In this document: piece by piece, positions 1 through 16,606 of the stretch
How the letters are laid out: the number at the start of each line of letters is the position of its first letter
Position numbering within the stretch: position 1 is the first letter of the stretch
Made by a program: the position numbers and the translations under genes
Sequence record: ON528737
Length of the DNA: 64,000 nucleotides
Source: Shigella phage ESh27
Direction: 5' to 3' (one strand)
The notes under the pieces: model-generated
The model's database searches: none
Told to the model about the DNA's origin: nothing
What the model saw: only the letters and a program-made list of their open reading frames with translations

Positions 1-246
1 GTTAAAGTTAGAGCTGGGTTATATTTAATTATTCGCGAAAATTCTGAATTCCCTAATGGAGTAGCTCCAGGCGGTGTACGTAAAAACTACATGGCAGCGA
101 TCAGTTCATTTGTTGATGCAGCTTACGAAATCTATAAAGAAGATTATAAAGAATATCAGCAGTCACAACCGGTTATTCGTTCGATTGGTGTAAATAAACA
201 AGCACAAAAATCTATTTGGCAACGTATTAAGGAATGGTTTAAATGA
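1..246 (+). CDS. hypothetical protein, C-terminal fragment (5' end outside window)
   Basis: Frame-1 open from window edge to TGA 244-246 (..[11 protein letters not shown]); stop overlaps next start (ATGA); no family recognised. Confidence 0.45.
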
Positions 247-704
247 AATCATTTAAAGAACGCTTAGAGCTATTAGATTTAGCCTTGTCTCGTGAGACTC
301 CTGAAAGTCTAGCAGAAAAATTCCAGTCCTACGGTTATAATTATTCTGCTGATGATATAATGAATGAAGTTCCTGAAATCTGTTGGCAAACGTGCTATTG
401 GAACAATGACCAAAAAGTTCAACGTGTTATAGTATGTGCAGCTAATAGGTTTAAATTGAAGAGTGGTGGAACTCTGGTTATTCCTGGAGTTCGTCATTAC
501 TCTAAAGATATGGCTGAAGTACTTGATATAGTTGGTCCTCAATTAGTCTCGCAACAAGTTTGTGGTGACGACCAAGGCTTTATTGACCAATACTCTAATT
601 ACTGGACACGTGAAGAAGCAATGATTATTGCAACGTATGCTGGACAGGTATGTATTGAACGTGGCGGAAGTGAGAAAGAACTTTATTCAGAGGACCTTTA
701 CTAA
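243..704 (+). CDS. hypothetical early protein (153 aa)
   Basis: ORF track; ATGA overlap with upstream ORF and abutting downstream ORF, typical T-even early operon packing; no family recognised. Confidence 0.55.
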
Positions 705-985
705 TGAACCTTAAACAACTCCAGAAAGATGCTATTGAATCACGTATCCAAGATATCAAACGTCTTAATCATATGATGGAAGAAAACTATGGCATGTATG
801 CTAATCAGCCAGGTTGGGATGCTTTAGATCATCCTTATTTGGTCAATCTATGTAAAGGTGATACATTAGCAATTATTCGTGAAGGGTTAAAACCTTTCTT
901 GCGTGACATGTATATTAAAATGAACGAAGAAATTATTAGCTCGTTGCAATATCAATTAAGGAAATTAGATGATGAGAATAATTGA
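704..985 (+). CDS. hypothetical early protein (93 aa)
   Basis: ORF track; tightly packed in early operon upstream of asiA. Confidence 0.5.
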   Translation: MNLKQLQKDAIESRIQDIKRLNHMMEENYGMYANQPGWDALDHPYLVNLCKGDTLAIIREGLKPFLRDMYIKMNEEIISSLQYQLRKLDDENN

Positions 986-1196
986 TTCTAAAGCAGATTA
1001 TTTTAATTCTGTTAATGATAAGAATAAAGCTTTAATTCGCCACTTTATTACTGAGATGGGTTATACTGACTCTAAAGATTTGAAAGAACACATTATCGAA
1101 TGTTCTGTGGCTAAAAAGTTTTCTTTTACCGATAAATGTTTAAATGAGGTTATAAATCATTATGAACAATCTTGTAGCAAAACACGATTTCAATAA
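969..1196 (+). CDS. hypothetical early protein (75 aa)
   Basis: ORF track; exact start uncertain. Confidence 0.4.
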   Translation: MMRIIDSKADYFNSVNDKNKALIRHFITEMGYTDSKDLKEHIIECSVAKKFSFTDKCLNEVINHYEQSCSKTRFQ

Positions 1197-1270
1197 GGCT
1201 TCCGTCCATAAGGACAAGAAGAAATCGGAACTTCAATCTAAACGTAAACAAAAACATAAGGGTAAAGACT

Positions 1271-1558
1271 ATGCTTACTAAAATCAAAGAAAATCCTGCC
1301 ACTGAACTTGTTATTCGATGTGAAGAACTTGCAGAGCTTTATCAGGTTAACCGAGAAGTATATCGTAGTGTTGTTGCCGATATGGCAGACGAAGTATGTT
1401 CTCGTATTCCTTTTAGTGTCGATTTCAATCATATGAAGCCTGGTGAAATCACTATCGTATTTGGTTCTGACTATACTGAAGAACGGGCTTTTAATGTCCT
1501 AGAATATGAAATGTCATTCTTTGACATACAGGACTACATTGATAGTTATAAGGAATGA
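1271..1558 (+). CDS. hypothetical acidic protein (95 aa); possible Arn-like DNA mimic
   Basis: About 21 Asp/Glu vs 9 Lys/Arg; size and position near asiA match T4 arn (92 aa) but sequence identity not verifiable from memory. Confidence 0.45.
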   Translation: MLTKIKENPATELVIRCEELAELYQVNREVYRSVVADMADEVCSRIPFSVDFNHMKPGEITIVFGSDYTEERAFNVLEYEMSFFDIQDYIDSYKE

Positions 1559-1559
1559 T

Positions 1560-1721
1560 ATGAGCCATAATCTTCAGAACGTAGTAGAGGCAGAACGTGA
1601 GCGTGAGGCTTTAGTCTATAATGAACTATTAGCCACGTTCTTGGCCTTACACTCGTATGAACAAGAAGACTACACTGATTACGTTAAAAGTGTAGAAAAA
1701 GCTGTTTACAATCAACACTGA
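1560..1721 (+). CDS. hypothetical small protein (53 aa)
   Basis: ATG at 1560 directly after stop of upstream ORF; track lists a longer alternative start at 1506. Confidence 0.35.
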   Translation: MSHNLQNVVEAEREREALVYNELLATFLALHSYEQEDYTDYVKSVEKAVYNQH

Positions 1722-1767
1722 TAATGGTACTATAATCGTATCAACCAAATGGAATGAATAAAACGTT

Positions 1768-2040
1768 ATGAATAAAGATATTGAAATTGTACGTGAAATT
1801 ATTACTGTTGCTTCTATTTTGATTAAATTCTCGAGGGAAGATATTGTTGAAGACCGAGCAAATTTCATCGGATTCTTGAATGAGATTGGAATTAAAAAAG
1901 ATGGTCGACAGCTAAATCAGAGTTCGTTCAGAAAACTAATTACAAATTTAACTGCCGAAGAAAAGAAAACACTGATTAGTGAATTCAATGAAGGTTTTGA
2001 AAATATTTATCGCCATTTGACGATGTATTCTAACAACTAA
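1768..2040 (+). CDS. asiA: anti-sigma70 protein AsiA
   Basis: 90 aa, near-identical over its length to T4 AsiA as recalled (MNK.I..VREIITVASILIKFSREDIVE.RANFI.FLNEIG...). Confidence 0.9.
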   Translation: MNKDIEIVREIITVASILIKFSREDIVEDRANFIGFLNEIGIKKDGRQLNQSSFRKLITNLTAEEKKTLISEFNEGFENIYRHLTMYSNN

Positions 2041-2700
2041 TTATTTAGCCCGCCCTAATATCCTTGCTGCTTGGTTGCATATTGCAGCCAAGCGTTCTTC
2101 ATTTAACACATCCGACCCCTTATACCAATACATAGAAACAGTTCCAGCATATATGTTATCCAAATTGAAGTAAGGACAACTATACATATATGCCAGTTCC
2201 GGAGTTTTTGATTTGGTAGGTAAGAAAGCAAAATCTGTTTTAGAAGTAAAGTGAAGTCCACTTAAATGGACCGAATACTCTGCTGTCGTTTTATCGACAG
2301 GAAATCCTCCCATAGATTTTTCAGTTACTGTGCTAGGTAACTTACCTTCATACGCAATAAGGTCGACGAAATAATTTAGATTTTTAGGTCTGAAAGAATA
2401 CACCGAACTAAAATCCGCCCTTGATGTGACGTGGACTATTTGTAGTTGTTCTAAAGCCGCAGATTCAAATCGTGTATTTCTTTCTTTTTGAATTACTTCT
2501 GTGTAAGTATCATATTTCGACCTCACGTAATAATCCATAAAAATATTCCCCTTGTACCATATTAGTGCCATTAGGAACAAAAGAACTACAACAGCAACTC
2601 TGGAAATAAGAATATTTCCAGAGGCGTTATCTTTGAAAATGCGGTCTAGCAACCCAAATAAAATATCACTAAGCGAAAATGATATTCTAGGTGCTGCCAT
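2041..2700 (-). CDS. t: holin T (lysis timing)
   Basis: 219 aa; MAAPRISFS..ILFG.LDR.FKDNA N-terminus, single TMD, C-terminal ..CNQAARILGRAK as in T4 holin (218 aa). Confidence 0.92.
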   Translation of the reverse strand: MAAPRISFSLSDILFGLLDRIFKDNASGNILISRVAVVVLLFLMALIWYKGNIFMDYYVRSKYDTYTEVIQKERNTRFESAALEQLQIVHVTSRADFSSVYSFRPKNLNYFVDLIAYEGKLPSTVTEKSMGGFPVDKTTAEYSVHLSGLHFTSKTDFAFLPTKSKTPELAYMYSCPYFNLDNIYAGTVSMYWYKGSDVLNEERLAAICNQAARILGRAK

Positions 2701-2718
2701 AGACCCTCCTTTTAAGGA

Positions 2719-2726
2719 TATTTATA
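2719..2726 (-). promoter_or_regulatory. late promoter TATAAATA (gene t)
   Basis: Reverse-strand TATAAATA followed by AAGGAGG SD and ATG at 2700. Confidence 0.6.
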
Positions 2727-2745
2727 TGCTGAGAGGTATTACCAT

Positions 2746-3525
2746 TTAAATCCAGGAACCATAGATCGTGCCTGTTGCACCCCATGACGGTGAACTTCCG
2801 AATACTGCTCTGCCAGGAGCACCGCCACCAGATCTAGATAAGTGATTACCCCATCCATCTCCGCCCCGACCTCCAGCATCGCCGCCATTGCCTCCGCCGA
2901 ATTGGGAAGTGTAACCGGCGCCGCCCGGGGCGTCATAACTAGCATTACCACCCGGCCAATTAACACCACCGCCACCGAGACCAAATGGTCTGCCACCGCC
3001 ACCACCAGCTGTAGCATTTGGCGCCCAGCTATTCTGTAATGACACTGCACCACCACCGCCACCGCCTGATGCAATAACGCCATAGTTCCAAATACGAAGT
3101 CTTCCGCCGATATCATTTTGGATTACATCGCCGCCATTTGTGCCTGGGTTTCCGTTTACAGTACCGTTACCACCTCGTCCCCACATATGAACACCGCCGT
3201 GAATATTCAAAGTGACATATTCGTTAGGAGTATCACCATACATGAAGAATAAAGGAACGTCTTTAGAATATGATACCAAATTTCCGGTGATATTAAACAC
3301 TATAGGCGCACTACCTGCCTCAAAACATCTATCTCGGAACCATTGACCATTGAAGTTATGGTCTGCTCCAAGTGTGTGAATAATTTCTCTTGAGCGACCT
3401 GCAAATTGACTCATCCAGCAAGGAACACCCAATCTTAATTGACCAGCTGCTTGACTCATCCAGCGCTGACCCGTTTCATTTACGGCTGAACTTCCAATCC
3501 AGCCAGGAACTCCAACTACTGCCAT
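2746..3525 (-). CDS. 38: gp38 receptor-recognising adhesin (T2-type, glycine-rich motifs)
   Basis: 259 aa; conserved N-terminus [36 protein letters not shown]-terminal poly-Gly motifs separated by variable segments; lies between 37 and t. Confidence 0.85.
2810..3180 (-). repeat. glycine-rich motif / hypervariable segment array in gp38 adhesin
   Basis: Runs of GGN codons (CC-rich on + strand, e.g. CCACCGCCACCGCC) encoding GGGGGG, GGGGG, GGGG, GGGNGG blocks separated by short variable segments. Confidence 0.8.
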
Positions 3526-3561
3526 AATTTATACTCCAAAGGGGGCATTTCCCCCTTGTTG

Positions 3562-6500
3562 TTAGAATTTAAAATATTTACTAATTTTGCGAGCAATTTT
3601 AGTAAAGAGAGGCGTTTTCAATTCTTTAATTTCTTCGCTCATTTCCTGAATGGCCTTAATTAAAAGCGCGTTCACTGCGGAGTTTGAAATTGTTAAAATT
3701 TCTTCTGGGTTATCCTGAGATCCGACACTAGAAGTGCTAACAGCTTCCGGTAATACTTCTTGCAAATCCTGTGCGATAATACCAATCTCATGGCCGATAA
3801 CTTCGCGGTCAGAAAGAGATTTAACTTTATCATAGGTTTTAACTTTGAGTTTATTTACCTTATCCACCGCATTCTCTTCGTAGTCTTCGACATTAATTTT
3901 CAGACGACGGTCAGAACGAATATAAACGTCGTTACAATATACAGCAGCACCAGCAGTAAAATCACCGTTAGATGCAAATGCATAATCACTCCCACCCACA
4001 TGCAATACAACATGAGGATTACCACCGCCAGCATGAACACCCATCGCCGCAAGGTGCTGTTCGCCCCAATGAGTAGCTTTCCAAATGTTATATGCTTGAT
4101 TTCGTGAGTCCTGACAGTCTACCAACAATCCAGCCGGACGGTCTCGCCAGTCTACCCATGCACCACCGGAAATATTACCACGGATAAGAGCGTATTCACT
4201 ATTATATGGAACACGCTCTCCCGCTAGAATCATTGCACCCTGGAAGTGATGACTAAATGAACCACCATGATTATTGTGAATATGTAAAATACCCTCATCT
4301 GTAGCCCAGATAACAGCCTTTTCTGCATCGCTATCATCTCTAAACCAGATATGTCGTGCACCAGTTGAGTTTTTGATGGTTATTCCGTTAGGTCCATGCA
4401 CGGTCAAAGCACCAGCAACATCAAACATCAAACTGTTATCTGTCCTGCGTTCAGCATAGAAGTGATAACCTTTTGAATCGCCGACTTCCAATACTGCCGC
4501 GCGACCAACTTCTGAATTTCCCCAATTGTTGATAGAGAATCGTTCAGAGCTATTATTCATCTGATTTAGGTATAATGTACCATCAGTGAATGTTTCGCCA
4601 AAGAAACGAGTTTTAATTGCACCTGTCGCTAAAGTACGTTCAGTGGAAAAATGAGCGCCTTGACTATCTTCTAACTGGATGATGTTATCACGACCATTAT
4701 TACTATCACCCCAATGGTTAAATTTAAAATAATCTCGTGATCCTAAACGTCCCGGGTCAAAAGTCATCACGCCTTTCATGTTAATATCACCGCTGACCAG
4801 AACGTTATCTGGGAAGTTAACAGTACCGTCTTGATTAAAACGAGACGCATGGCCTTGTGAACCATCTTCTTTCAGATGATGAATAACGAATGTACCTGAT
4901 TCAATTTCGGTACCTAAAGACCAAACGGATTTACCGTTTAAAAACTTCTGTTTAACAATAGGATAATATTTGCTTACAGCGTCATCATCGATTTCCTGGA
5001 AAATAGGAGCCGCTTGAACATATTGAATGTCATAACCGCCGGCACCCGCTCCATGACCAACAAATTTAATATAGCCATTCGCAGCAAACGTATTGTAACT
5101 TGATTGTAAATCTGGAATAGTAACTTTACCGGTATCTAAAGCCATACTAAACGGGCGAAGTGGACCGATATCACCATGTTTACCTTCACCATAAGCAGTT
5201 GGAATAATATGAAGACTGCCTTCTGAACGTCTAAAAATGGCTCCATAATCTGCGTTCCAAATACGAAGAGCATTCACTGCTCCAGATGAAATTTCACCTG
5301 TTGTGTGAACTCCTCTATCTCCAGCAGTAACACCAGATGATTCAAATGAACCATTAACGTTCATTTCTACTTCGCCAGTAGTAAGTCTTTGAATATAGCT
5401 CATCCAGCTAGTTGCATCAGAAATTTCCATAATGTTTTTACGGATACCTCCGCTTGGATCAACAAACGTATTACCCCAAACTTTAATATCCATATTATCA
5501 ACCGAGCTGTATCCTGTTGTGTTGCCTCTAAACATTAGTGTAGAAGAATTATTTCTACCATCTATATTAACAGAACCACCAATAACGTCAATATTACCAG
5601 GAGTAACTAACAAACCGCCATGAGTATTAATGTTTGTGGTACCCTTGCCGCGGAAATAATGATGATAGTTACCGCCTTGATAATATCCTAAAAGAGTTTG
5701 ACCATCGCCGTATGCGTTATTATCATGGTAAGTAACAACAGTGGCCAAAGCATAGTTTTCTGTCGGTGGCGTTGTCATAAGAAGCCCATCTGGAGAATAA
5801 CCCATAACCATTTTTCTAAGGCTTTGTGTTTCCGCAGGACCGTAAATGAAAGTTTTTGTTCCGTTGTTTACTGTATGGAAATATCCATCCTGATGCCACT
5901 TAAATCCGGTATCATTATCACCAAGAACAATTGAGGCCGTTCCTAATTCAGAATATCCTTTTGGACCACCTGGAAGACCTACAGCGATAGAATGACCGGC
6001 TTTCAATCCACCGGACCAGGTAAACGACCAAAGATAAGTGTCTAAGCCATCTCCGGAATACCAGGTTATTCCGTCATTAACATTAACTTCGTGGAAAATA
6101 CCTGCTCCTACAGCATTTCGCATAACACGGAGGTGGTTAATAGCCGTTTCGCTTTCTGCCAATGGAGTGTTATTTGATAATGAATAGATGTCATAATCGC
6201 CTGTCTTCTTCCCATTTGTAATAACTTTGTCGGTCAGAATTTGTGGAGACGAAATAGATTTCCATGCTGATACTTCAGGTGAAGTAAATAGTCCACTGCC
6301 CGAAAATGCATAGGTGCTTTCATCACCAGCGGCGTAGTCTTGAACCCTGATATTAAGTACTTGTGTAGTTAAACCATCATTAGCCGGGGCATAAATGATT
6401 CCACGTTCGCGACTATTGTTATCGAAAAAACGAACATGTGCTGTACCTGAACTTTTTGTAATAAGTTCACCGCCTTCAGTCATAATCTGCCCAGCGGCAA

Positions 6501-6795
6501 TAATATCACGAGTTACTCGAGCAATACCAGTTAAATTAAAATTACCTGTCTGAGTGAAGACACCATTTAAAGTATAATCGCCAGTTTGGTTATAATTACC
6601 TGTATGAATAACATTCCCGTCAATACTACCGCCTTTAGCAAAACCCAGATCAATAATATTTCCTTGGTCATCTTTAGTAAAAAGTACACGGTCTTTTAAG
6701 TTTATAGCCAATTCACCTTCGGCTAATACTGAAGCGGCAGGACGTGCTCCTGCAGTTTTGCTTCTTTTAAATTGTATTTGTTTTAAAGTAGCCAT
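3562..6795 (-). CDS. 37: gp37 long tail fibre distal subunit
   Basis: 1077 aa; position between 36 and 38; N-terminal MATLKQIQFKRSKTAG.. as in T-even gp37. Confidence 0.9.
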   Translation of the reverse strand: MATLKQIQFKRSKTAGARPAASVLAEGELAINLKDRVLFTKDDQGNIIDLGFAKGGSIDGNVIHTGNYNQTGDYTLNGVFTQTGNFNLTGIARVTRDIIAAGQIMTEGGELITKSSGTAHVRFFDNNSRERGIIYAPANDGLTTQVLNIRVQDYAAGDESTYAFSGSGLFTSPEVSAWKSISSPQILTDKVITNGKKTGDYDIYSLSNNTPLAESETAINHLRVMRNAVGAGIFHEVNVNDGITWYSGDGLDTYLWSFTWSGGLKAGHSIAVGLPGGPKGYSELGTASIVLGDNDTGFKWHQDGYFHTVNNGTKTFIYGPAETQSLRKMVMGYSPDGLLMTTPPTENYALATVVTYHDNNAYGDGQTLLGYYQGGNYHHYFRGKGTTNINTHGGLLVTPGNIDVIGGSVNIDGRNNSSTLMFRGNTTGYSSVDNMDIKVWGNTFVDPSGGIRKNIMEISDATSWMSYIQRLTTGEVEMNVNGSFESSGVTAGDRGVHTTGEISSGAVNALRIWNADYGAIFRRSEGSLHIIPTAYGEGKHGDIGPLRPFSMALDTGKVTIPDLQSSYNTFAANGYIKFVGHGAGAGGYDIQYVQAAPIFQEIDDDAVSKYYPIVKQKFLNGKSVWSLGTEIESGTFVIHHLKEDGSQGHASRFNQDGTVNFPDNVLVSGDINMKGVMTFDPGRLGSRDYFKFNHWGDSNNGRDNIIQLEDSQGAHFSTERTLATGAIKTRFFGETFTDGTLYLNQMNNSSERFSINNWGNSEVGRAAVLEVGDSKGYHFYAERRTDNSLMFDVAGALTVHGPNGITIKNSTGARHIWFRDDSDAEKAVIWATDEGILHIHNNHGGSFSHHFQGAMILAGERVPYNSEYALIRGNISGGAWVDWRDRPAGLLVDCQDSRNQAYNIWKATHWGEQHLAAMGVHAGGGNPHVVLHVGGSDYAFASNGDFTAGAAVYCNDVYIRSDRRLKINVEDYEENAVDKVNKLKVKTYDKVKSLSDREVIGHEIGIIAQDLQEVLPEAVSTSSVGSQDNPEEILTISNSAVNALLIKAIQEMSEEIKELKTPLFTKIARKISKYFKF

Positions 6796-6803
6796 AAGTC
6801 CTC

Positions 6804-7460
6804 TTAATAATAGCCGAAATCTTGAACAGAATCCTTAATAACAATTTGGTCAAATCGTGGAACATGCGAGGGTTGAGATGCAGGATTCTGTGAGAAAAAG
6901 TTTGGGGCTGTTAGAGCGCCGGTCATCGTATCTCCTGAACGGAGTACGCGACTGTTTGCATTAGCATTAACTGTATTTATTTGACTATCAACATAATCTT
7001 TGCGAGTAAGGTCGTAATTATTTAAAGGTGCTAACGTTGTGGCTCTGAATTGAGATGCTTCAATAACGCCTTTAGAACTTATATTACCGGTGCGAGTATC
7101 AATTACAACAGTTCTTTCACCGGTACCTTGAGATGATTTAAACCCAATACCATACCACGAAACAATATCCATGTTTGTTTGGTCGAATGTCGCGGCGTCA
7201 CCACCACCAGAAAAAATACCATTCGTTTGGTCATCTGCTGTTTTGACTGCAACACCTTCGTTAAAGATTACCTTTTTGAGATATGTCCCGCCGTTTGCTT
7301 TAGATACGAAATCGTTATCAGCCGCTTTTGGCTTGTTATATTCAGTGTATAATTTAAATGTTTTATATAGGATGTCATCGCCAGCTGGCATTAAAGGAAA
7401 ATTGCCTTGATGCCATATGACGGAACCACCAACTGTACTTCCGGCTTTTAAATCGGCCAT
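6804..7460 (-). CDS. 36: gp36 long tail fibre distal connector
   Basis: 218 aa (T4 gp36 about 221 aa); synteny 35-36-37; late promoter upstream. Confidence 0.85.
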   Translation of the reverse strand: MADLKAGSTVGGSVIWHQGNFPLMPAGDDILYKTFKLYTEYNKPKAADNDFVSKANGGTYLKKVIFNEGVAVKTADDQTNGIFSGGGDAATFDQTNMDIVSWYGIGFKSSQGTGERTVVIDTRTGNISSKGVIEASQFRATTLAPLNNYDLTRKDYVDSQINTVNANANSRVLRSGDTMTGALTAPNFFSQNPASQPSHVPRFDQIVIKDSVQDFGYY

Positions 7461-7487
7461 TTCGTGTCTCCTTATTAATATTAAAAG

Positions 7488-7495
7488 TATTTATA
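7488..7495 (-). promoter_or_regulatory. late promoter TATAAATA (gene 36)
   Basis: Reverse-strand TATAAATA ~28 nt upstream of gene 36 ATG, just downstream of the gene 35 terminator. Confidence 0.55.
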
Positions 7496-7500
7496 CGCGA

Positions 7501-7522
7501 AAAGGAGACCGAAGTCTCCTTT
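7501..7522 (-). terminator. stem-loop terminator after gene 35
   Basis: GGAGAC-UUCG-GUCUCC hairpin (minus-strand reading) followed by UUUU. Confidence 0.6.
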
Positions 7523-8645
7523 ATTCTGTGTACTCTTTAAATTCCTGCCCAAATACCTTACCCGTGTCGTTAGATAACTGAGTAGGCAAGTCCATTATAT
7601 CATTACCGGTTAATGATTCATCGATGTAATTAGCACGAATACCATTTAGGCCAAACTCGGCAGGTTTTGCTATACTTCCGTTACATGATACTTCAGTGAA
7701 AATAACATTTCTTAGTCCACCTTGACCGACTGGGGCCGTACGGTAACAATATACTGTAAAGCCATCGGCTTCAGCTGGTATTTCAACATATTCTTCATAT
7801 AGCTTCCACACCCCGGCAGTTCCGTCAAAGTTTATATCTTTAGATGATATAGGAGAGCTAGATGGAGACTTAAAGAAACGAATTGAAAGTCTTGTGGTTC
7901 CTTCCTCTAGTAATGCTTCATCAGCCATTAATTGAAATTTCAAATAAAGAAAATCTGTAGGCTTTAATCCATAGTTTGCGATAGGAGTAACAAGGGATGA
8001 TGTAGGCACCCTTTTTATTTCGTTGTTAGTTCCTCCAACAGGAGATAAAAACGTTTCTAGAGCTTCATATGTACGTCTAGGATAGCCGGTAGCACCTATA
8101 TCAGCAATAGAGTCATATACAATATCTAATGGAGTTGAGTAATCCGAAATTGTTTTCTTATTACTGTATTTTATGTGTTCTAATGCAATAGTATTTTTAC
8201 CTGAAACATAAAACGCTGAATATGAAATATCAACAAGACTAGCAACTTCAATTGACGGTATAACTGAACTCCCGGCAGCTTTAAACCATTCAATTATTTC
8301 TGGCGGCAAATTAAATTTGTTATTAGAAATAAATGCGAAAATGAAATTATCTGCGTATGTATTAACAAACGAAATAAATGCAGCCGAAGTTGCATTATTT
8401 GTAGGCGCAAAATTGTATAATTTACTATCAACTATAGTTCCATTTTCCGGATTTATTACCCTAACATTTAGTCCAATACCAAAAGACTGCAACCCTAAAG
8501 GCTCGTTTTGGAACAAAATATACGGATTAGTTGTTGAAAGCGGGCATGAACCCGCTATACTTAGTTTAAATCTAACTGAATTGCTTTCCGATAAAAATGG
8601 CGTTTGGACGTATCCCTGTCCAAACCTTGCCATAAATTTTTCCAT
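7521..8645 (-). CDS. 35: gp35 long tail fibre hinge
   Basis: 374 aa (T4 gp35 372 aa); synteny between 34 and 36. Confidence 0.85.
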   Translation of the reverse strand: MEKFMARFGQGYVQTPFLSESNSVRFKLSIAGSCPLSTTNPYILFQNEPLGLQSFGIGLNVRVINPENGTIVDSKLYNFAPTNNATSAAFISFVNTYADNFIFAFISNNKFNLPPEIIEWFKAAGSSVIPSIEVASLVDISYSAFYVSGKNTIALEHIKYSNKKTISDYSTPLDIVYDSIADIGATGYPRRTYEALETFLSPVGGTNNEIKRVPTSSLVTPIANYGLKPTDFLYLKFQLMADEALLEEGTTRLSIRFFKSPSSSPISSKDINFDGTAGVWKLYEEYVEIPAEADGFTVYCYRTAPVGQGGLRNVIFTEVSCNGSIAKPAEFGLNGIRANYIDESLTGNDIMDLPTQLSNDTGKVFGQEFKEYTE

Positions 8646-8653
8646 ATAACCTC

Positions 8654-11600
8654 TTATTCAACCCATATAAATTTAACGGTTTTGTTAACCGGGTCTGGAA
8701 CAATTCTCACATTTCCTAATTGTAAGAAGTCTCGAACAGTAAGGTTTCCAATAACAGCATTATCAGATGGGATAGCACCGACATCGCTAGGTGAAGGCGG
8801 GTTGCCACTATCAAATACCATTGCAAATGAAGTCCAAGCATCTTTATTTTTCTGCCAGGTACGAGTATAACGAATACTACCACCATTTGCACCTGTAGGA
8901 TAACAAATCCAATCCTGATAAAGCGAATCTAAGCTATTACCAAATTGAGTCAAAGTACCAGGATATTTAATTTCTTGGTCACGGTTACCTTTGTTATCAC
9001 GCGTCCAATATCCAGGGAATTGGCTATATACGGCAGAATCGTTAATGTCAATAGACCAAAAACCTACAGTAGAAGCTGTTGGTTTATCGGTATAAACCGT
9101 AGCAGTTTTAACGCCGTTAGAAATAATCCTGTTATTTACAGTTAACCCACCAGTAGTTATTGTTGCACCACTTGTGATTTGAACACCATTGTCAAGACGA
9201 ACTAATCCTGTGGCATTGTTAATCGTGATCGGGCGTAAGTTATTAAACGTCCCGGTCTGGTCACCTGAGTTAGTTAATGCAATATAAGAACTGTTACCGG
9301 CATTATAAAGCATAACACCATAGTTACCGTTAATAGCTCTGAATGCAATAGGAGAACTAGAAACAATTTCGCCTGTAGCACTAATAGGCCCGGTAAAGGT
9401 AGAAACACCTGTAACATTTAATCCATTTGTAGAAACAATGCCTGTTGAATAAAGTGTTCCATTAATATTAAACGATACTTTATTATCAGAAGCGCGCTGA
9501 GAATAGAAATGGTATCCTGTTTCGTCACCAGCTTCAAATATTGTATCACGGGCACCATCTGTAGCGCTATTACCCCATGCTCTAACAACGAAATTCTCTT
9601 TATTACTAAGAGATTGGGTTCCTTTAGTGAAAACTATTTCAGAACCGCTAGAGTCATTAAGAGTTAATCTACGAGTAACAGATGCTTCGGACCCAAAAGA
9701 AGCAGTGCTTGTAGATACTAAAGGAGCACTCAGGTTGGTCTGTTTAGTAAGACTTAAAGAACCATTAACCGTCTGGTCGATGTCTCTACGGATGAACTGA
9801 AGAGAATCTAGACCATCTAACAGATTACTATCTACGGCTTTAGCTTTCAATGGCAAATAGTTAGCAAGTACACGGTTTAATTCATATGGAGATATAGCAT
9901 AGCTATTTTTTTCATATGATTCTAAAGGTTGTGTTGAACCAACTGTATCATTACCAACGAATGTAATTGAACCAGATGAAGTTTTAACAAAACCTCTTAT
10001 TGCAGTAGTAGCAGCCCATGTTGGTTCATTCTGGACAATCCATTTTAAATTCTTAGGAGATACAGCAGTATTAGCAGAAGTTCCTGTTACAGTTTCAGCC
10101 TGAGTAGCAACCTTAATCACGCCTTCAGAAGTTTCAGTGGACTTAGTCCCTAAAAGCTTTTTAGGAGTAATAAGAACATCATCTAAAGTTCCTGCATTAG
10201 ATTCAGCTTGGGTCGCTACACGAAGTGTACCACGTTGTGTTTCATTTGCTTTAGAAATATCAAGAGTATAATGGTTCCACAAGGTTCCTTCTTCAATAAG
10301 TCCGGAATCAGAATTAACACTGGTACGGTCAGAAGAATCAAAATGAGTTTTAATTTTCAGTGGAGACGAGATACGAGTATCGTCAGTTCCAGTATCAAAT
10401 TCAACTTGCGTAGCAATTTCGGCTATGCCGGATAATCCTTCCGTAGCTTTCCTATCATTTAACGTCTTAGGCGTTACTGCTCTAGTATAATCAGTTCCAG
10501 TGTTAGTTTCTGCTTGCGTAGCAATTTCAATTAAACCAATACGCCCATCAGTAGAAGTTTTCTTATGCAGAGTTTCAGGAGTCACTACAGCATTAGCCCA
10601 ACCGGCTTGTGATTCGCCAGCGATAACTTCACTTTCAATAGCAAGAATTACTGCGCCCTGTTGAGTAGGGGTAGCTTTATACTGGTCAAGAGCCTTTGGA
10701 GAAATAGTTAAATTATCTACGGCTTTGTTATAAACGTTAGTCCCAGCATTACCACGAATAGTAGCAGCTGTAGTACCAGACGTAGATGTGTATTTTACAA
10801 TACCAGATAAAACTTCAGAACCTTGACGGGCATCCAATTTCTTAGGAGTAATAATAGTGGTATCATCTGTGCCAGCATTAGTTTCAGCCTGAGTTGCAAC
10901 TTCAGCAACACCTCTACGGGTTTCAGTTGCTGTACGTTCGTTCAATTTCTTAGGAGAAATAATCAAGTCGTCTTGGAATGCAAAATCAGTATTCTGGTTA
11001 ACTTGTGCAGTTGTTGCAATACGAGCAATACCACGACGAGTTTCAGTTGCTGTACGATTTGCTAATGTTTCCGGAGTAATAGCCAGTTCTTTACCAGGAG
11101 CATTTTCTAAATCAACATTTGCTTGCGCTTGAGAAGCAAGAGCAATAACACCTAAACGAGCTCGAGTGGTATTGCTCGATGCATCGACTCGTTCGACGGT
11201 TACGGTGTTTTGTTGAACTACCCAATATTTTGTTTCAGATGAATAATCTTCTATATAAGCTAACTCAAGTACAGGTACATACGAAGTATCACCATTAAAT
11301 TCCAACTCACTAACAGAAACCCATTGTGCATCAGGTGGATACTCCGAACGTTTTGGGAACTGTAATAAAGAAATACTGCTAGCAATTGTATCGCCTTCAG
11401 CAGCTTTAATTTTTACAGTTTGCCCTTTACGCATATAATTCAACGATATTTTAACAGTATCGCCAGACAAAATATCTGTAGGCAAAGTAAGATTTACCGT
11501 CGAGATTGTATCATTATTAGTTCCAAAAACAAGAACTTCTTCATTAGGGTGTAAATCAGTATCATTACGAACTATACGTAAACGAGATTTCTGGTCACCT

Positions 11601-12487
11601 TCCCAAACACGCCATAAGCTATTAGCAGAATCATAAACAAAGAATGCTTCCGCAGTATTACGTCCTTCTGCTACATGAACACCAGCTTCTCGTATAGAAG
11701 TTGTATCATCGTAAGTTTTGACAATTGTGTGATATAATGGGTTTAATTTGTCTAAATCAACTAAATTAATAATATCGCCATTATTAGCATTACGAGGCAA
11801 TGTAATATTAATAGGAGCGGCTGATGTAAAACGTCGAATGATAAAATCATTAGGTTGCGCCTGATATGGCTTAGCAGGAGTTACTGTGACTGCATTACGT
11901 TCGTAATCAGAAACATACATTTGCCATAGGCGGTTGCTAAAAATGAAGACCATTTTAGATTTTGGGTGCGTCATTAAAACTGAACGAACCTGTTGTCCTC
12001 TAAAGTTTACAATACTTTGAGCCTCTGCAGTAATTTGAACTTTTACATAGCCTACTCTACCGCCAATATCAGACAAAATAACTGTATCGCCATCTAAAGG
12101 ATTTTGAGGCAAAGTGAAATTAATATCAGTGCCAGCTGAAGTATCAACCGCGATAGAGTTACCTACTGATAATTGGAAATCTCCGCCTTGAACTGTAATC
12201 CATTCTGCATCTGTACGAGTTGCCTTCCATTTAGCCAAAGAGAAAGGGCCCGCCGGAGCTGGAATATCGTTTAAAGCTTGATAAAAACGATTATCATAAA
12301 GAACAATAAAATCTTTTGTATACGCGCGCGTCTCGTCATAATTCTGTACGGTGTTTTCTTGCACCAAAAAGTCAACGTTCACGCCATCGGTGCCAACTGT
12401 GCGGTCAGCAAGCGCAACGTTAACTATCTTATCACCGCCTGCGTCAAGACCATCTTCGGCCCTGAACTTACGTTTGATGTCAACCAT
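8654..12487 (-). CDS. 34: gp34 long tail fibre proximal subunit
   Basis: 1277 aa (T4 1289 aa); repeated ..ATQAETN.GTDD..ITPKKL.. units; AAGAGGA SD and TATAAATA late promoter upstream. Confidence 0.92.
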   Translation of the reverse strand: MVDIKRKFRAEDGLDAGGDKIVNVALADRTVGTDGVNVDFLVQENTVQNYDETRAYTKDFIVLYDNRFYQALNDIPAPAGPFSLAKWKATRTDAEWITVQGGDFQLSVGNSIAVDTSAGTDINFTLPQNPLDGDTVILSDIGGRVGYVKVQITAEAQSIVNFRGQQVRSVLMTHPKSKMVFIFSNRLWQMYVSDYERNAVTVTPAKPYQAQPNDFIIRRFTSAAPINITLPRNANNGDIINLVDLDKLNPLYHTIVKTYDDTTSIREAGVHVAEGRNTAEAFFVYDSANSLWRVWEGDQKSRLRIVRNDTDLHPNEEVLVFGTNNDTISTVNLTLPTDILSGDTVKISLNYMRKGQTVKIKAAEGDTIASSISLLQFPKRSEYPPDAQWVSVSELEFNGDTSYVPVLELAYIEDYSSETKYWVVQQNTVTVERVDASSNTTRARLGVIALASQAQANVDLENAPGKELAITPETLANRTATETRRGIARIATTAQVNQNTDFAFQDDLIISPKKLNERTATETRRGVAEVATQAETNAGTDDTTIITPKKLDARQGSEVLSGIVKYTSTSGTTAATIRGNAGTNVYNKAVDNLTISPKALDQYKATPTQQGAVILAIESEVIAGESQAGWANAVVTPETLHKKTSTDGRIGLIEIATQAETNTGTDYTRAVTPKTLNDRKATEGLSGIAEIATQVEFDTGTDDTRISSPLKIKTHFDSSDRTSVNSDSGLIEEGTLWNHYTLDISKANETQRGTLRVATQAESNAGTLDDVLITPKKLLGTKSTETSEGVIKVATQAETVTGTSANTAVSPKNLKWIVQNEPTWAATTAIRGFVKTSSGSITFVGNDTVGSTQPLESYEKNSYAISPYELNRVLANYLPLKAKAVDSNLLDGLDSLQFIRRDIDQTVNGSLSLTKQTNLSAPLVSTSTASFGSEASVTRRLTLNDSSGSEIVFTKGTQSLSNKENFVVRAWGNSATDGARDTIFEAGDETGYHFYSQRASDNKVSFNINGTLYSTGIVSTNGLNVTGVSTFTGPISATGEIVSSSPIAFRAINGNYGVMLYNAGNSSYIALTNSGDQTGTFNNLRPITINNATGLVRLDNGVQITSGATITTGGLTVNNRIISNGVKTATVYTDKPTASTVGFWSIDINDSAVYSQFPGYWTRDNKGNRDQEIKYPGTLTQFGNSLDSLYQDWICYPTGANGGSIRYTRTWQKNKDAWTSFAMVFDSGNPPSPSDVGAIPSDNAVIGNLTVRDFLQLGNVRIVPDPVNKTVKFIWVE
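10040..11170 (-). repeat. intragenic tandem repeat units within gene 34
   Basis: Recurrent ~40-aa units (..TETRRG.A.VATQAETN.GTDD..ITPKKL..); DNA repeats e.g. GTTTCAGTTGCTGTACG at ~10920 and ~11042. Confidence 0.7.
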
Positions 12488-12521
12488 GGTAGTCCTCTTA
12501 TCATTATGTGTTCTATTTTAC

Positions 12522-12529
12522 TATTTATA
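12522..12529 (-). promoter_or_regulatory. late promoter TATAAATA (gene 34)
   Basis: Reverse-strand TATAAATA ~35 nt upstream of AAGAGGA SD and gene 34 ATG. Confidence 0.6.
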
Positions 12530-12544
12530 AATGAGTAAAAGACT

Positions 12545-12574
12545 ATTTACGCTTTCGAACTAGTATGTTACTAT
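12545..12574 (+). promoter_or_regulatory. early sigma70-type promoter (rnh)
   Basis: -35 ATTTAC, 18-nt spacer, -10 TACTAT inside conserved TGTTACTATAG block. Confidence 0.4.
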
Positions 12575-12607
12575 AGTCCAAGTTGACTAACTGAACAAGA
12601 GGTTCAT

Positions 12608-13525
12608 ATGGATTTAGAAATGATGTTGGATGAGGATTACAAAGAAGGTATTGCACTTGCAGACTTTAGTAACATTGCATTAGCAGCTGCATTAAACAAC
12701 TTTGAAGACGGTGATAAAATTACTGTTCCGATGGTTCGCCATGTAATCTTGAATTCAATTCGTAAAAACGTAGTGATGTTCCGTAAGCAAGGTTATACAA
12801 AATTTGTATTGTGCATGGATAACGCTACTTCCGGGTATTGGCGACGCGACTTTGCTTACTATTACAAGAAAAATCGTAAAACTGATCGTGAAGCTTCAAA
12901 GTGGGATTGGGAAGGATATTTTACTGCACTCCATCAAGTCGTTGATGAGATTAAGAAATATATGCCATACGTTGTAATGGATATTGACAAATACGAAGCG
13001 GATGACCATATCGGTGTATTAACTAAATATTTGTCATTAGCTGGTCATAAGGTGTGTATTGTTGCATCAGATGGTGACTTTACACAATTACACAAATACC
13101 CTAACGTTAAACAGTGGTCGCCACCGCAGAAAAAATGGGTTAAAATTAAGAATGGTTCTGCCGAAATTGATTGCATGACTAAAATTCTTAAAGGCGACCG
13201 TAAAGATGGTGTTGCGTCTGTTCGAGTTCGTGGTGATTTCTGGTTTACTCGAGTTGAAGGCGAACGAACTCCGAGTATGAAAACAACGATTATTGAAGCA
13301 ATTGCTAATGACCGTTCTCAAGCTGAAGTATTATTAAGTGCAGAAGAATATAAACGGTATCAAGAAAATTTGGTTCTCATTGATTTTGATTATATCCCTG
13401 ATAATATTGCTTCAACCATTATAGAGTATTATAACTCATATAAACAACAACCTAAAGGCAAGATTTATTCATACTTTGTAAAATCCGGCCTTTCTAAATT
13501 AACAAGTGTAATTAACGAATTCTGA
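12608..13525 (+). CDS. rnh: RNase H (5'-3' exonuclease / flap endonuclease)
   Basis: 305 aa; MDLEMMLDEDYKEG..., DNATSGYWRRDFAYYYKKNR, YEADDHI, SDGDFTQLHKYPNVKQWSP motifs match T4 RNase H. Confidence 0.93.
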   Translation: MDLEMMLDEDYKEGIALADFSNIALAAALNNFEDGDKITVPMVRHVILNSIRKNVVMFRKQGYTKFVLCMDNATSGYWRRDFAYYYKKNRKTDREASKWDWEGYFTALHQVVDEIKKYMPYVVMDIDKYEADDHIGVLTKYLSLAGHKVCIVASDGDFTQLHKYPNVKQWSPPQKKWVKIKNGSAEIDCMTKILKGDRKDGVASVRVRGDFWFTRVEGERTPSMKTTIIEAIANDRSQAEVLLSAEEYKRYQENLVLIDFDYIPDNIASTIIEYYNSYKQQPKGKIYSYFVKSGLSKLTSVINEF

Positions 13526-13532
13526 GGTAAAC

Positions 13533-13802
13533 ATGGCTAAGAAAGAAGCAGTTGAATTTAATCAAGATGTGCATGGTGAAGAACTGGCTAAACTAGTCAA
13601 GGAAGCTTCCGATAACAAACTTAAAATTTCTGGTTATAATGAACTGATTAAAGACATTCGTACTCGTGCTAAAGAAGAGCTTGGCGTTGATGGAAAAATG
13701 TTTAATCGTTTGTTAGCTCTTTATCATAAAGATGCTCGTGACCAATTTGAAGCTGAAAACGAAGAGGTAGTCGAGCTTTATGACACAGTTTTCACTAAGT
13801 GA
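13533..13802 (+). CDS. dsbA: dsDNA-binding protein DsbA (late transcription enhancer)
   Basis: 89 aa, size and position between rnh and 33 as in T4. Confidence 0.8.
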   Translation: MAKKEAVEFNQDVHGEELAKLVKEASDNKLKISGYNELIKDIRTRAKEELGVDGKMFNRLLALYHKDARDQFEAENEEVVELYDTVFTK

Positions 13803-14118
13803 TATTAAACCGGTTGATGAGGCCGGTTTATCTGAACAAGAGTTAGCAGTAAAACACGATAAAGATGATATCGCTAAATTGCTTGACCGTCAAGAAAACG
13901 GATTCATTATCGAATCCATGGTTGAACAATTTGGTATGTCTTATTTAGAAGCAACAACTGCTTTCTTGGAAGAAAATTCTATTCCAGAAACACAATTTGC
14001 TAAATTTATTCCTACAGGAATTGTTGAAAAAATTACAAGTGAAGCAATTGACGAAAACATGCTTCGCCCATCAGTTGCTCGTGGTGAAAAAACTAATACG
14101 TTAGATTTCTTATTATGA
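13780..14118 (+). CDS. 33: gp33 late-promoter transcription co-activator
   Basis: 112 aa (T4 gp33 112 aa); synteny dsbA-33-59-32. Confidence 0.85.
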   Translation: MTQFSLSDIKPVDEAGLSEQELAVKHDKDDIAKLLDRQENGFIIESMVEQFGMSYLEATTAFLEENSIPETQFAKFIPTGIVEKITSEAIDENMLRPSVARGEKTNTLDFLL

Positions 14119-14768
14119 TTAAAATACGCATGCCTCCTGATGGAGAACGTTATATTAATGGAAAATCGGTATACAAACTATACTTGATGTGCAAACAACA
14201 TTTTAATGGTCGGTATGACGTAATCAAATATAACTGGTGCATGCGTGTTTCGGATAATGCGTATCAAAAACGCCGAGATAAATATTTCTTTGAGAAACTA
14301 GCAGAGAAATATAAGTTAAAGGAACTCACTTTGATATTCATCAGTAACTTAGTTGCTAACCAAGATGCATGGATTGGTGAGATATCAGACGCTGATGCAT
14401 TAGTTTTCTATAGGGAATATATTGGACGTCTCAAACAGGCCAAGGAGACATTTGCTGAAGATGTACGTAACATCTACTATTTCAGTAAGAAAGTGGAAGT
14501 TAGTGCGCTTCAAGAGATATTTGATTATAATAATAAAGTTCAGTCGAGCTACATATTTAAATTGCTACAAAGCAATATAATTTCGTTTGAAACCTTCTTG
14601 TTGTTGGATTCATTCTTGAATATTATAGATAAGCATGACGAACTTACTGACAATTTAGTCTGGCAAAATTATTCTACCAAATTAAAGGCATATCGAAAAA
14701 TACTTCAAATCGATGGAAATGCTGCTAAGAAATTGTTCATAGAAACAATCAAATCATGTAAGTATTAA
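14115..14768 (+). CDS. 59: gp59 helicase loader
   Basis: 217 aa (T4 gp59 217 aa); immediately upstream of gene 32. Confidence 0.88.
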   Translation: MIKIRMPPDGERYINGKSVYKLYLMCKQHFNGRYDVIKYNWCMRVSDNAYQKRRDKYFFEKLAEKYKLKELTLIFISNLVANQDAWIGEISDADALVFYREYIGRLKQAKETFAEDVRNIYYFSKKVEVSALQEIFDYNNKVQSSYIFKLLQSNIISFETFLLLDSFLNIIDKHDELTDNLVWQNYSTKLKAYRKILQIDGNAAKKLFIETIKSCKY

Positions 14769-14797
14769 GCTTTATTTCTTGTGTGTTAAAATTACTT

Positions 14798-14805
14798 TAT
14801 AAATA
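14798..14805 (+). promoter_or_regulatory. late promoter TATAAATA (gene 32)
   Basis: Exact TATAAATA about 80 nt upstream of gene 32 ATG. Confidence 0.5.
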
Positions 14806-14815
14806 AATCATACCA

Positions 14816-14884
14816 GCTACGAGGTATAAGTGTCGTAGCAACCAACTGTAAATAAATTAAATAATCTAAATAAAGGTAAATATA
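14816..14884 (+). promoter_or_regulatory. gene 32 translational operator (hairpin/pseudoknot stem plus AU-rich unstructured leader)
   Basis: Stem GCTACGA(14816-22)/TCGTAGC(14833-39) followed by UAAAUAAAUUAAAUAAUCUAAAUAAAGG to the ATG; matches the known gp32 autoregulation layout. Confidence 0.65.
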
Positions 14885-15787
14885 ATGTTTAAACGTAAAT
14901 CTACTGCTGACCTCGCTGCTCAAATGGCTAAACTGAACGGTAACAAAGGTTTCTCTTCAGAAGATAAAGGCGAATGGAAGCTGAAGCTAGATGCATCAGG
15001 TAATGGTCAAGCGGTAATTCGTTTCTTGCCAGCAAAAACTGATGACGCACTACCATTTGCAATTCTTGTTAACCACGGTTTCAAGAAAAATGGTAAATGG
15101 TATATTGAAAATTGCTCTTCTACACATGGTGATTACGACTCTTGTCCTGTATGTCAGTACATTAGTAAAAATGACCTGTACAATACCAACAAAACTGAAT
15201 ATTCTCAACTGAAACGTAAAACTTCTTATTGGGCTAATATTCTGGTTGTTAAAGACCCTCAAGCTCCAGATAACGAAGGTAAAGTATTTAAATATCGTTT
15301 CGGTAAAAAGATTTGGGACAAAATCAATGCAATGATTGCAGTTGATACCGAAATGGGTGAAACTCCAGTTGATGTTACTTGCCCGTTTGAAGGTGCTAAC
15401 TTCGTTCTGAAAGCTAAGCAGGTTTCTGGTTTTAGCAACTATGATGAATCTAAATTCTTGGGTCAATCTGAAATTCCTCGTATTAATGACGAAGCATTCC
15501 AGAAAGAACTGTATGACCAGATGGTAGACCTTACTACTTTGACGGCTAAAGACCAGTTCAAATCCTTCGAAAAATTAAATGAATCTTTCGCTAAGGTTCT
15601 TGGTACTGCGGCTCTTGGTGGTGCAGCAGCCGCAGCAGCTTCTGTTGCAGATAAAGTTGCTTCTGACCTTGATGATTTTGATAAAGACATGGAAGCCTTT
15701 AGTTCTGCAAAAACTGAAGATGACTTCATGAGCTCTACCTCATCCTCTGATGATGGCGACCTTGATGACCTGTTAGCTGGTCTATAA
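14885..15787 (+). CDS. 32: gp32 single-stranded DNA-binding protein
   Basis: 300 aa; [35 protein letters not shown], Zn motif region HGDYDS.P.CQY, acidic C-terminus; matches T4 gp32. Confidence 0.96.
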
Positions 15788-15793
15788 TAAATC

Positions 15794-15815: not shown

Positions 15816-15842
15816 GAGTATCTGTAAATTACCGAAAAGGTT

Positions 15843-16604: not shown

Positions 16605-16606
16605 AA

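Follow-up and report, generated by a model that had tools for sequence, protein, structure and literature searches.

Introduction

In phage T4, gp38 is an assembly chaperone that is absent from the virion, and gp37 itself binds the receptor. In phages of the T2/T6 type the product of gene 38 is an adhesin, directed to FadL/OmpF in T2 and to Tsx in T6. The architecture of this adhesin, with five glycine-rich motifs separating four hypervariable segments, was defined earlier (PMC3157838), and its N-terminal tryptophans plug into the gp37 tip (PMC7917993). Structures have been solved for the S16 gp37-gp38 tip complex (6F45) and for the receptor-binding domain of PP01 gp38 (9V85). Both proteins bind OmpC, and in PP01 the OmpC specificity is governed by loop E.

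Receptors are also known for several phages whose gp38 is close to the one described here. For the Mosigvirus Bas46 (ChristianSchoenbein, MZ501056; BASEL collection), which fails to infect an ompF mutant, OmpF was determined experimentally as the primary receptor and the LPS deep core as the secondary one (BASEL supplement). Bas38 and Bas47 are OmpF-dependent, the receptors of fPS-2 and fPS-90 are OmpF and LPS (PMC7917993), that of FL33 is OmpF, and RB69 and RB51 depend on OmpF (PMC3157838). Dependence on FhuA or TolC has also been seen in some relatives and may be indirect (one source being PMC3157838).

The present study deals with genes 37 and 38 in a 64,000-nucleotide stretch of Shigella phage ESh27 (sequence record ON528737), referred to below as the window. 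Published work already covers the module as such, its fold and modular evolution, and also the receptor of exactly this gp38 protein. We are highly confident that the two genes belong to an RB69-like Mosigvirus and specify the distal half of its long tail fibre together with a separate, OmpF-binding tip adhesin. As the tail-fibre tip of such a coliphage, the module is ordinary and has been well studied.

Results and Discussion

Organization of the locus

The gene order 34-35-36-37-38-t-asiA is the same as in T2, T6 and RB69 (Table 1). The first-pass annotation had given gene 38 a 259-aa product, and the open reading frame encodes exactly that; the neighbouring stretch, which had been taken for the gp37 tip, proved to be the complete gene 37. 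A ribosome-binding site (GGAG) lies 8 nt 5' of the gene 38 ATG. G+C content at gene 38 is locally 0.46–0.47 as compared to about 0.36 in the flanks. A 125-aa ORF overlapping gene 38 in another frame (2739..3116) was judged to be a by-product of G+C-rich glycine codons.

Table 1. Features of the gene 37-38 locus in window coordinates.
Feature	Position	Strand	Basis or remark
Gene 38	2746..3525	minus	Intact ORF, exactly 259 aa; stop codon 2746-2748
gp38 residues 1-42, gp37-attachment N-terminal domain with W9, W22, W37	3400..3525	minus	PF21721; T6-like allele
Approximate recombination junction in gene 38	3370..3385	minus	Gene nt ~145-152, codon ~49-50; T6-like upstream, RB69-like downstream
gp38 residues 47-115, conserved beta-helix part of receptor-binding domain	3181..3387	minus	AF2 strands 48-115, pLDDT above 90; superposes on 9v85, 6f45
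gp38 residues 116-259, specificity domain	2749..3180	minus	Conservation/entropy profile, glycine runs
Predicted receptor loop A, T122-P127 TVNGNP	3145..3162	minus	From PP01 loop A (W119-I124)
Predicted receptor loop B, L163-T172	3010..3039	minus	From PP01 loop B
Predicted receptor loop C, G186-W190 GGVNW	2956..2970	minus	From PP01 loop C
Predicted receptor loop D, Y205-F209 YTSQF	2899..2913	minus	PP01 mapping; includes Q208
Predicted receptor loop E, W225-R231 WGNHLSR	2833..2853	minus	From PP01 loop E
G+C-rich hairpin AAGGGGG-AAAUG-CCCCCUU	3538..3556	minus	36-nt gene 37/38 spacer, directly ahead of gene 38 ribosome-binding site
Gene 37, distal subunit of long tail fibre	3562..6795	minus	ORF, 1077 aa; phrog_1699 E 0
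gp37 residues 961-1077, intramolecular chaperone domain (Peptidase_S74 family)	3565..3915	minus	PF13884 at 961-1019, E 1.3e-14; T6/fPS-like allele
gp37 residues 651-960, distal shaft and tip	3916..4845	minus	84-100% identity to phiC120/Bas46, 14-46% to RB69, per 50-aa block
gp37 residues 1-650, RB69-like proximal shaft	4846..6795	minus	68-100% identity to RB69 per 50 aa
T4-type late-promoter motif TATAAATA	7488..7495	minus	Exact motif search; 5' of gene 36

The spacer hairpin has a predicted folding energy of -14.7 kcal/mol, and hairpins with different stems are equivalently placed in T4, T2, T6, RB69, Bas38/47, FL31 and the fPS phages. Exact copies of the late-promoter motif were found 5' of gene 36, t and gene 34, and exact motif search gave none between the copy ahead of gene 36 and the end of gene 38. 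By analogy with T4, genes 36-37-38 would form one unit, probably transcribed from that copy. A sigma-70 promoter scan of 1900-7700 returned 19 candidates against 16.4 ± 3.8 in shuffled sequence; this absence of enrichment is consistent with T4-type late promoters. Scans for tRNA genes and Rfam families over the entire window gave no matches.

The best DNA match is phiC120 (NC_055718; Mosigvirus c120), with 97.4% identity over both genes and 97.7–98.2% over the whole window. Its gp38 is 99.2% identical, two residues being different (S72G, L183I), and it is without the homing-endonuclease ORF present in the window between uvsW and inh. Bas46 has the same gp38, gene order, gp37 chaperone domain and intergenic hairpin, and its gp37 differs in patches at residues 200-350 and 550-600. 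Overall amino-acid identity of gp37 is 98% to phiC120 and 90.7% to Bas46. Gene 38 differs from that of Bas46 at 40 nucleotides (94.9% identity), all of them synonymous, which indicates purifying selection on the gene.

Gp38 is an adhesin of the T2/T6 type

Gp38 matched two Pfam families well above their cut-offs of 25 bits: GP38 (PF05268) at residues 47-259 (E 2.3e-83, 279.8 bits) and Gp38_N (PF21721) at residues 1-42 (E 1.4e-20, 73.4 bits). It also matched the 'host specificity' family phrog_2056 (2e-110) and, among PDB sequences, the gp38 of PP01 (1.6e-73) and of S16 (5.5e-48). The AF2 model (pLDDT 86.7) superposed in the PDB on 9v85 (TM 0.92, rmsd 1.5 Å, E 2.5e-26) and 6f45_D (S16; TM 0.81–0.84, E 4.6e-21) only. 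Sequence identity is 62–64% to PP01 and 46% to S16. The predicted structure thus has the fold of a beta-helix joined to a polyglycine-II sandwich, and with the S16 and PP01 proteins (TM 0.81–0.92) it would share the attachment domain and five distal loops as well. The 17 N-terminal residues of the model are of low confidence, as is to be expected of a domain whose folding takes place against gp37.

The conserved N-terminal attachment domain proposed in the first-pass annotation is borne out by the Gp38_N match and by W9, W22 and W37, whose counterparts in the alignment are the three S16 gp38 tryptophans. In an alignment of 60 homologues, in which the OmpA class was represented by M1, FL08 and AV119, W9 and W22 are at least 90% conserved and W37 70–90%. 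The poly-Gly array with short variable segments, also proposed earlier for the C-terminal part, was recovered in the conservation and entropy profile of the same alignment. Five glycine-rich motifs (G116-G121, G154-G159, G174-G182, G212-G215, G233-V241) separate four hypervariable segments (122-153, 160-173, 183-211, 216-232). The glycine content is 35% in residues 110-259 as compared to 11% in residues 1-109, and 14 stretches consist of at least two consecutive glycines. Little or no variation is seen in the glycine blocks; the most variable columns are those of the intervening segments, with entropy peaks at residues 121-130, 161-170, 181-190, 201-210 and 221-230.

It could be argued that gp38 is an assembly chaperone like its T4 namesake, absent from the virion, with gp37 binding the receptor. 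The gene does occupy the T4 position, following gene 37 and preceding t, and several near-identical database proteins are labelled 'long tail fiber assembly chaperone/catalyst', but these labels are inherited annotation and the position is all that speaks for such a protein. The sequences are unrelated (BLASTP against T4 gp38, E 0.99 over 14 aligned residues), every Pfam, PHROG, PDB and fold match is to the adhesin family, and the Pfam search gave no match to a chaperone family. Moreover, gp37 ends in an S74 chaperone domain with a putative self-cleavage motif, unlike the needle tip of T4, and its last 130 aa are 0–14% identical to T4. A T4-type chaperone is refuted at the sequence level and can practically be dismissed; the distinction from T4 drawn in the first-pass annotation stands.

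Genes 37 and 38 form a mosaic

Sequence comparison resolves the locus into a three-part mosaic: a gp37 shaft of the phiC120/Bas46 type, a T6-like gp37 chaperone domain together with the gp38 N-terminus, and an RB69-like gp38 specificity domain. The junction within gene 38 was located by an informative-site scan of window, RB69 and T6 DNA. In codons 1-49 the comparison with T6 gives a pN of 0.009 and that with RB69 one of 0.32; in codons 50-259 the values are 0.29 (T6) and 0.006 (RB69). The N-terminal domain of gp38 is 98% identical to that of T6, whereas RB69 and RB51 carry a different allele that is 2 aa shorter (52% identity). In the specificity domain (50-259) RB69 is identical save L183I and RB51 differs by L183I and N82D, all loops being the same.

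The N-terminal 50 aa of gp37 show 90% identity to T4, a conservation which suggests that this end joins gp36. A Gp34_trimer-like domain occupies residues 453-550. Residues 651-960 are of a type found also in phiC120 and Bas46 and unlike RB69, T2 and T6; the distal shaft and chaperone domain of RB69 are unrelated alleles (14–36% identity). By analogy with S16, gp37 is predicted to be cut after R960, in the motif DVYIR/SDRRLK (the slash marks the cut; discussed in PMC7917993), of which VYIR/SD is conserved in T6 and T2. The final 80 aa ahead of the cut are 19–28% identical to all other classes, and the distal end DVYIR is the predicted docking face for gp38. The chaperone domain matches the S16 gp37 tip (6f45_A) and is 70–72% identical to T6/fPS-2 (72% for T6) as compared to 31–33% for RB69/Bas47. 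Across 11 related phages the gp38 N-terminal allele follows the gp37 chaperone-domain allele (Spearman 0.70, from non-independent pairs), and physical linkage is the simplest explanation.

OmpF is the predicted primary receptor

The receptor loops A-E were placed by mapping the PP01 loops through the gp38-PP01 alignment. Variability within the family is highest in loop B (entropy 2.86). All five loops are identical to those of Bas46, Bas38, Bas47, fPS-2, fPS-90, FL33, FL31 and RB69, and loop E is invariant among OmpF-dependent phages, the exception being the aberrant FL34 record. The whole protein is 100% identical to gp38 of Bas46, 99.2% to fPS-2, 98.1% to FL33, 96.5% to fPS-90, 95% to Bas38 and Bas47 and about 91% to RB69 and RB51. 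T2 and T6 share the family and architecture, but their hypervariable loops differ (specificity-domain identity 48% and 61%, respectively), and the loop sequences of S16 and PP01 are also unlike those of the window. The alignment that the first-pass annotation had called for therefore places the specificity domain in the RB69/Bas46 OmpF class, and not with T6 (Tsx) or T2 (FadL). From the identity of the adhesin to those of phages with experimentally determined receptors, assayed on E. coli K-12 and Y. pseudotuberculosis, OmpF is predicted to be the primary receptor. The LPS core is likely the secondary receptor, contacted through the short tail fibres.

It is very unlikely that the receptor on the natural host is another one, that is OmpW, FadL, OmpC, OmpA, Tsx or LPS alone. 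Adhesins of this class can be retargeted by single substitutions such as RB51 Q206L; T2 has a loop B with partial similarity (5 of 10 residues the same) and was scored FadL-dependent in the BASEL study; and phiC120, the nearest whole-genome relative, was isolated on O157:H7, where surface access is unlike that in K-12. Against this, gp38 agrees residue for residue with that of the OmpF-dependent Bas46, the five loops match every OmpF-dependent relative, and residue 208 is Q and not L.

With OmpF as the receptor, the course of adsorption can be proposed from the S16, PP01 and T2 systems, on which the presence of gp38 at the fibre tip of the virion and its adsorption role are likewise modelled. 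Gp37 would trimerise with the aid of its own C-terminal chaperone domain (961-1077), which would then cleave itself off after R960 (DVYIR/SD). The exposed hydrophobic gp37 tip would take up one gp38 monomer through the N-terminal domain and its three tryptophans. In the C-terminal part of gp38 the five glycine-rich motifs would form the polyglycine-II sandwich that holds out loops A-E, and these would bind the outer-membrane porin OmpF reversibly, so that the baseplate is positioned and the short tail fibres engage the LPS core.

In practical terms, OmpF can be named with confidence as the primary receptor from sequence alone. Resistance would be expected to arise through loss or down-regulation of ompF, through its regulators or through defects in the LPS core.

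Contribution of gp38 to host range

The variable segments had been put forward as the host-range determinants of this phage. This holds in so far as the receptor is fixed by the loops; however, the loops are invariant across the OmpF-dependent phages compared, and thus do not explain host-range differences among those relatives. It could be that gp38 provides no more than a conserved OmpF anchor and that such differences arise from other factors: the divergent distal shaft of gp37, the short tail fibres, host defence systems, or barriers formed by O-antigen or capsule. We give this serious weight, a little short of an even chance. Phages isolated on K-12, O157:H7, Shigella and Yersinia have essentially the same specificity domain; in contrast, wide variation is seen in gp37 651-960 and in the gp38 N-terminal allele. 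In addition, fPS-2 and fPS-90 differ in host range despite their common OmpF and LPS receptors (PMC7917993), and infection patterns on the ECOR strain collection differed in spite of identical Gp38. On the other hand, a swap of gp38 or of its distal half suffices to switch the primary receptor of T6-like phages (preprint 10.64898/2026.04.02.716166), and T6 adsorption is abolished by deleting any hypervariable segment or glycine-rich motif (PMC3157838). The swap and deletion results make gp38 a necessary determinant, even if not the sole one.

Codon 208 and the OmpF/OmpW switch

Q208 in loop D (codon CAA, 2902-2904) corresponds to Q206 of RB51, where the substitution Q206L (A617T) switches the receptor from OmpF to OmpW (preprint 10.64898/2026.04.02.716166). 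The window carries Q, the OmpF state of the published switch, and a single A-to-T change in this codon is the obvious candidate route to the use of OmpW. The RB68 stock of the same preprint reads L at this position and the public RB68 record (KM607004) reads Q, as RB51 does, so the preprint is the sole source for the switch. In the deposited fPS-2 genome the only ambiguous base in 2.4 kb falls on the switch nucleotide (CNA). The ambiguous fPS-2 base and the RB68 discrepancy would fit a natural one-nucleotide OmpF/OmpW toggle, possibly polymorphic within phage stocks, an idea that we regard as unlikely. Were it true, populations of this phage would maintain a standing fraction of OmpW-binding variants already able to overcome hosts with ompF-based resistance.

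Gene 38 and its predicted receptor

Genes 37 and 38 form a textbook T2-type host-range module, which is already known and ordinary. The first-pass annotation had described a gene 38 product (gp38) of 259 aa with a glycine-rich C-terminal half, and the ORF, its length and the composition were all found to be real: glycine makes up 35% of residues 110-259 vs 11% before, and the local G+C rises up to 0.47 at the gene. The protein matches the Pfam families GP38 (2.3e-83) and Gp38_N (1.4e-20), the PHROG family 'tail fiber protein; host specificity' (2e-110), and the solved T2-type adhesins PP01 gp38 (9V85, 1.6e-73) and S16 gp38 (6F45 chain D, 5.5e-48). T4 gp38, on the other hand, has no similarity to it (BLASTP E 0.99), which supports the T2-type interpretation. 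An AlphaFold2 model built with 60 homologues (pLDDT 86.7) matched only the PP01 and S16 adhesin structures in the PDB (TM 0.92, rmsd 1.5 A and TM 0.81-0.84 respectively; all others E > 2). Aligning 60 sequences showed no or almost no variation in the glycine blocks G116-G121, G154-G159, G174-G182, G212-G215 and G233-V241, and the family varies most in the segments that separate these blocks. Trojet et al. (PMC3157838) had defined this layout, with its five motifs and four segments.

The five predicted receptor loops (A-E, see table) were placed through the PP01 loop definitions and the alignment of gp38 with PP01. Loops of T6, which uses Tsx, are unrelated to them, whereas the T2 loops resemble them only in part (loop B shares 5 of 10 residues). 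All five are identical across the window and the OmpF-dependent relatives aligned, with the FL34 record as the sole exception. In that record (PP400789) the annotated CDS is longer, and beyond residue ~236 the gp38 translation no longer follows any other adhesin of the OmpF type; this has the appearance of a frameshift or a misassembly close to the beginning of the record.

Among the relatives with experimental characterisation, the closest all depend on OmpF: fPS-2 (99.2% gp38 identity to the window) and fPS-90 (96.5%) (PMC7917993), FL33 (98.1%), Bas38 (95.4%), Bas47 (95.0%), FL34 and FL31 (about 92%, FL31 being weakly dependent), and RB69 and RB51 (about 91%; PMC3157838). Moreover, gp38 is 100% identical to that of Bas46 (Escherichia phage ChristianSchoenbein, MZ501056), for which the BASEL supplement gives OmpF as the primary and LPS deep core as the secondary receptor. 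The adhesin is thus identical in sequence to one with an experimentally determined receptor, and the finding is already known. It has been reported that Q206L alone switches RB51 gp38 from OmpF to OmpW (2026 preprint, 10.64898/2026.04.02.716166); the equivalent residue here, Q208 (codon CAA), is in the OmpF state. As the loops are those of the OmpF-dependent relatives and Q208 is in this state, OmpF is predicted from the sequence, and is very probably the receptor of the phage.

Two public records deserve mention at this codon. Position 1423 of fPS-2 (LR215722) is an N, the sole ambiguous base in 2377 nt of that sequence; it occupies the second position of gp38 codon 208 (CNA) and corresponds to window position 2903. 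A change from A to T at the same nucleotide is the one reported to convert RB51 from OmpF to OmpW (10.64898/2026.04.02.716166). The N may mean that the population was mixed at this switch residue, or its position may be coincidental. The public RB68 gp38 (KM607004) is the same as that of RB51 (FJ839693), with Q at 206 (CAA), whereas the preprint ascribes the OmpW specificity of RB68 to L206 (10.64898/2026.04.02.716166). At this residue the public sequence apparently does not represent the stock used in the laboratory.

Selection on the adhesin

The OmpF-type adhesin class is under strong purifying, rather than diversifying, selection. Gene 38 differs from its Bas46 counterpart at 40 of 780 nucleotides (94.9% identity) with 0 amino-acid changes, and codons 50-259 give pS 0.21 and pN 0.006 against RB69. 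The variable segments had been proposed to determine the host range of this phage. They do fix the receptor, but phages with the same loops differ in host range; such phages were isolated on K-12, O157:H7, Shigella and Yersinia. In view of the purifying selection that proposal has to be tempered. The synonymous divergence from Bas46 (pS about 0.20) looks high relative to the surrounding region, where nucleotide identity to Bas46 is 96.4% (window 79-20000).

Gene 37 and the mosaic structure

What had been taken as the gp37 tip only (3562-6795) spans the entire gene 37. Its product matches phrog_1699 over the full length, residues 961-1019 match the Peptidase_S74 intramolecular-chaperone family (1.3e-14), and the best PDB match is the S16 gp37 tip fragment. 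The motif DVYIR|SDRRLK lies at R960|S961, leaving a C-terminal domain of 117 aa beyond. The equivalent S16 motif is an autocleavage site, and the same cut at DVYIR|SD is predicted for the fPS phages (PMC7917993); VY[IV]R|SD is kept in T2, T6, RB69, Bas38, Bas47, FL31 and the fPS phages. In the inferred mechanism gp37 would form trimers, assisted by its own chaperone domain, which would then be removed by cleavage, after which a single gp38 monomer would dock via its N-terminal domain and its polyglycine-II sandwich would offer the loops to the receptor. In this N-terminal domain, W9, W22 and W37 align with the three tryptophans of S16 gp38.

One detail goes beyond the earlier description, namely that genes 37-38 are a mosaic. 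Informative sites in gene 38 are T6-like up to nucleotide ~148 (codon ~49) and RB69-like beyond it: codons 1-49 have pN 0.009 vs T6 and 0.32 vs RB69, and codons 50-259 show the reverse pattern. In gp37, residues 1-650 are RB69-like (68-100% per 50 aa), whereas residues 651-960 are of a type common to phiC120 (NC_055718) and Bas46, with 14-46% identity to the RB69 shaft per 50-aa block; the last 80 aa of this part have 19-28% identity to the other tip classes compared. This distal shaft type is also present, at the DNA level, in the Tequatrovirus FL33. The chaperone domain resembles that of T6 and the fPS phages (70-72% identity, vs 31-33% to RB69 and Bas47). Among 11 phages, compared as non-independent pairs that carry no claim of co-evolution, the gp38 N-terminal allele tracks the chaperone-domain allele (Spearman 0.70) and the specificity domain does not (0.13); physical linkage is the simplest reading of this correlation. 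On this reading a block of ~530 nt (chaperone domain, spacer and attachment domain) is exchanged as a single unit and the OmpF cassette as another, with crossovers in the conserved flanks. Modular exchange of T-even adhesins has already been described (PMC3157838), and the mosaic fits it and is therefore not new in kind.

Expression signals and genome context

Genes 34, 36 and t are each preceded by an exact T4-type late-promoter motif (TATAAATA); sigma-70-like sites showed no enrichment. Genes 37 and 38 are separated by a spacer of 36 nt, which contains a stable G+C-rich hairpin (-14.7 kcal/mol) directly before the gene 38 ribosome-binding site. Hairpins with other stem sequences occupy the same position in T4, T2, T6, RB69, Bas38/47, FL31 and the fPS phages, many with a CUUCGG-type loop. 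As no T-run follows the hairpin, it does not qualify as a classical terminator; it may influence how stable the mRNA is or the ratio of gp37 to gp38.

Coordinates of the features discussed (window positions, or gp38 residues for the loops)
Feature	Position	Strand	Remark
Late-promoter motif, gene 34	12522-12529	-	exact match
Gene 34	8654-12487	-	1277 aa
Gene 35	7521-8645	-	
Late-promoter motif, gene 36	7488-7495	-	exact match
Gene 36	6804-7460	-	
Gene 37	3562-6795	-	1077 aa
gp37 residues 651-960	3916-4845	-	distal shaft
Spacer hairpin	~3538-3556	-	
Gene 38	2746-3525	-	259 aa
Codon 208 of gene 38	2902-2904		
Late-promoter motif, t	2719-2726	-	exact match
t (holin)	2041-2700	-	
uvsW	46419-47933		
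Homing-endonuclease ORF	47939-48721	-	260 aa
inh	48720-49388		
Predicted loop A	T122-P127		TVNGNP
Predicted loop B	L163-T172		10 residues
Predicted loop C	G186-W190		GGVNW
Predicted loop D	Y205-F209		YTSQF
Predicted loop E	W225-R231		WGNHLSR

A classical T-even long-tail-fibre cluster lies on the minus strand within the initial 12.5 kb of the window, followed on the opposite strand by counterparts of genes annotated asiA, arn and motA in close relatives. The whole window is that of an RB69-like Mosigvirus, and phiC120 is the nearest public genome (97.7-98.2% nucleotide identity in the three stretches searched). A free-standing GIY-YIG (SegE-like) homing-endonuclease ORF lies between uvsW and inh, whereas in phiC120 these two genes are adjacent and the site is without the ORF. 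It is found with at least 99% identity in 10 other phage records, including NRG-P0074, NBG1 and mar005p1.
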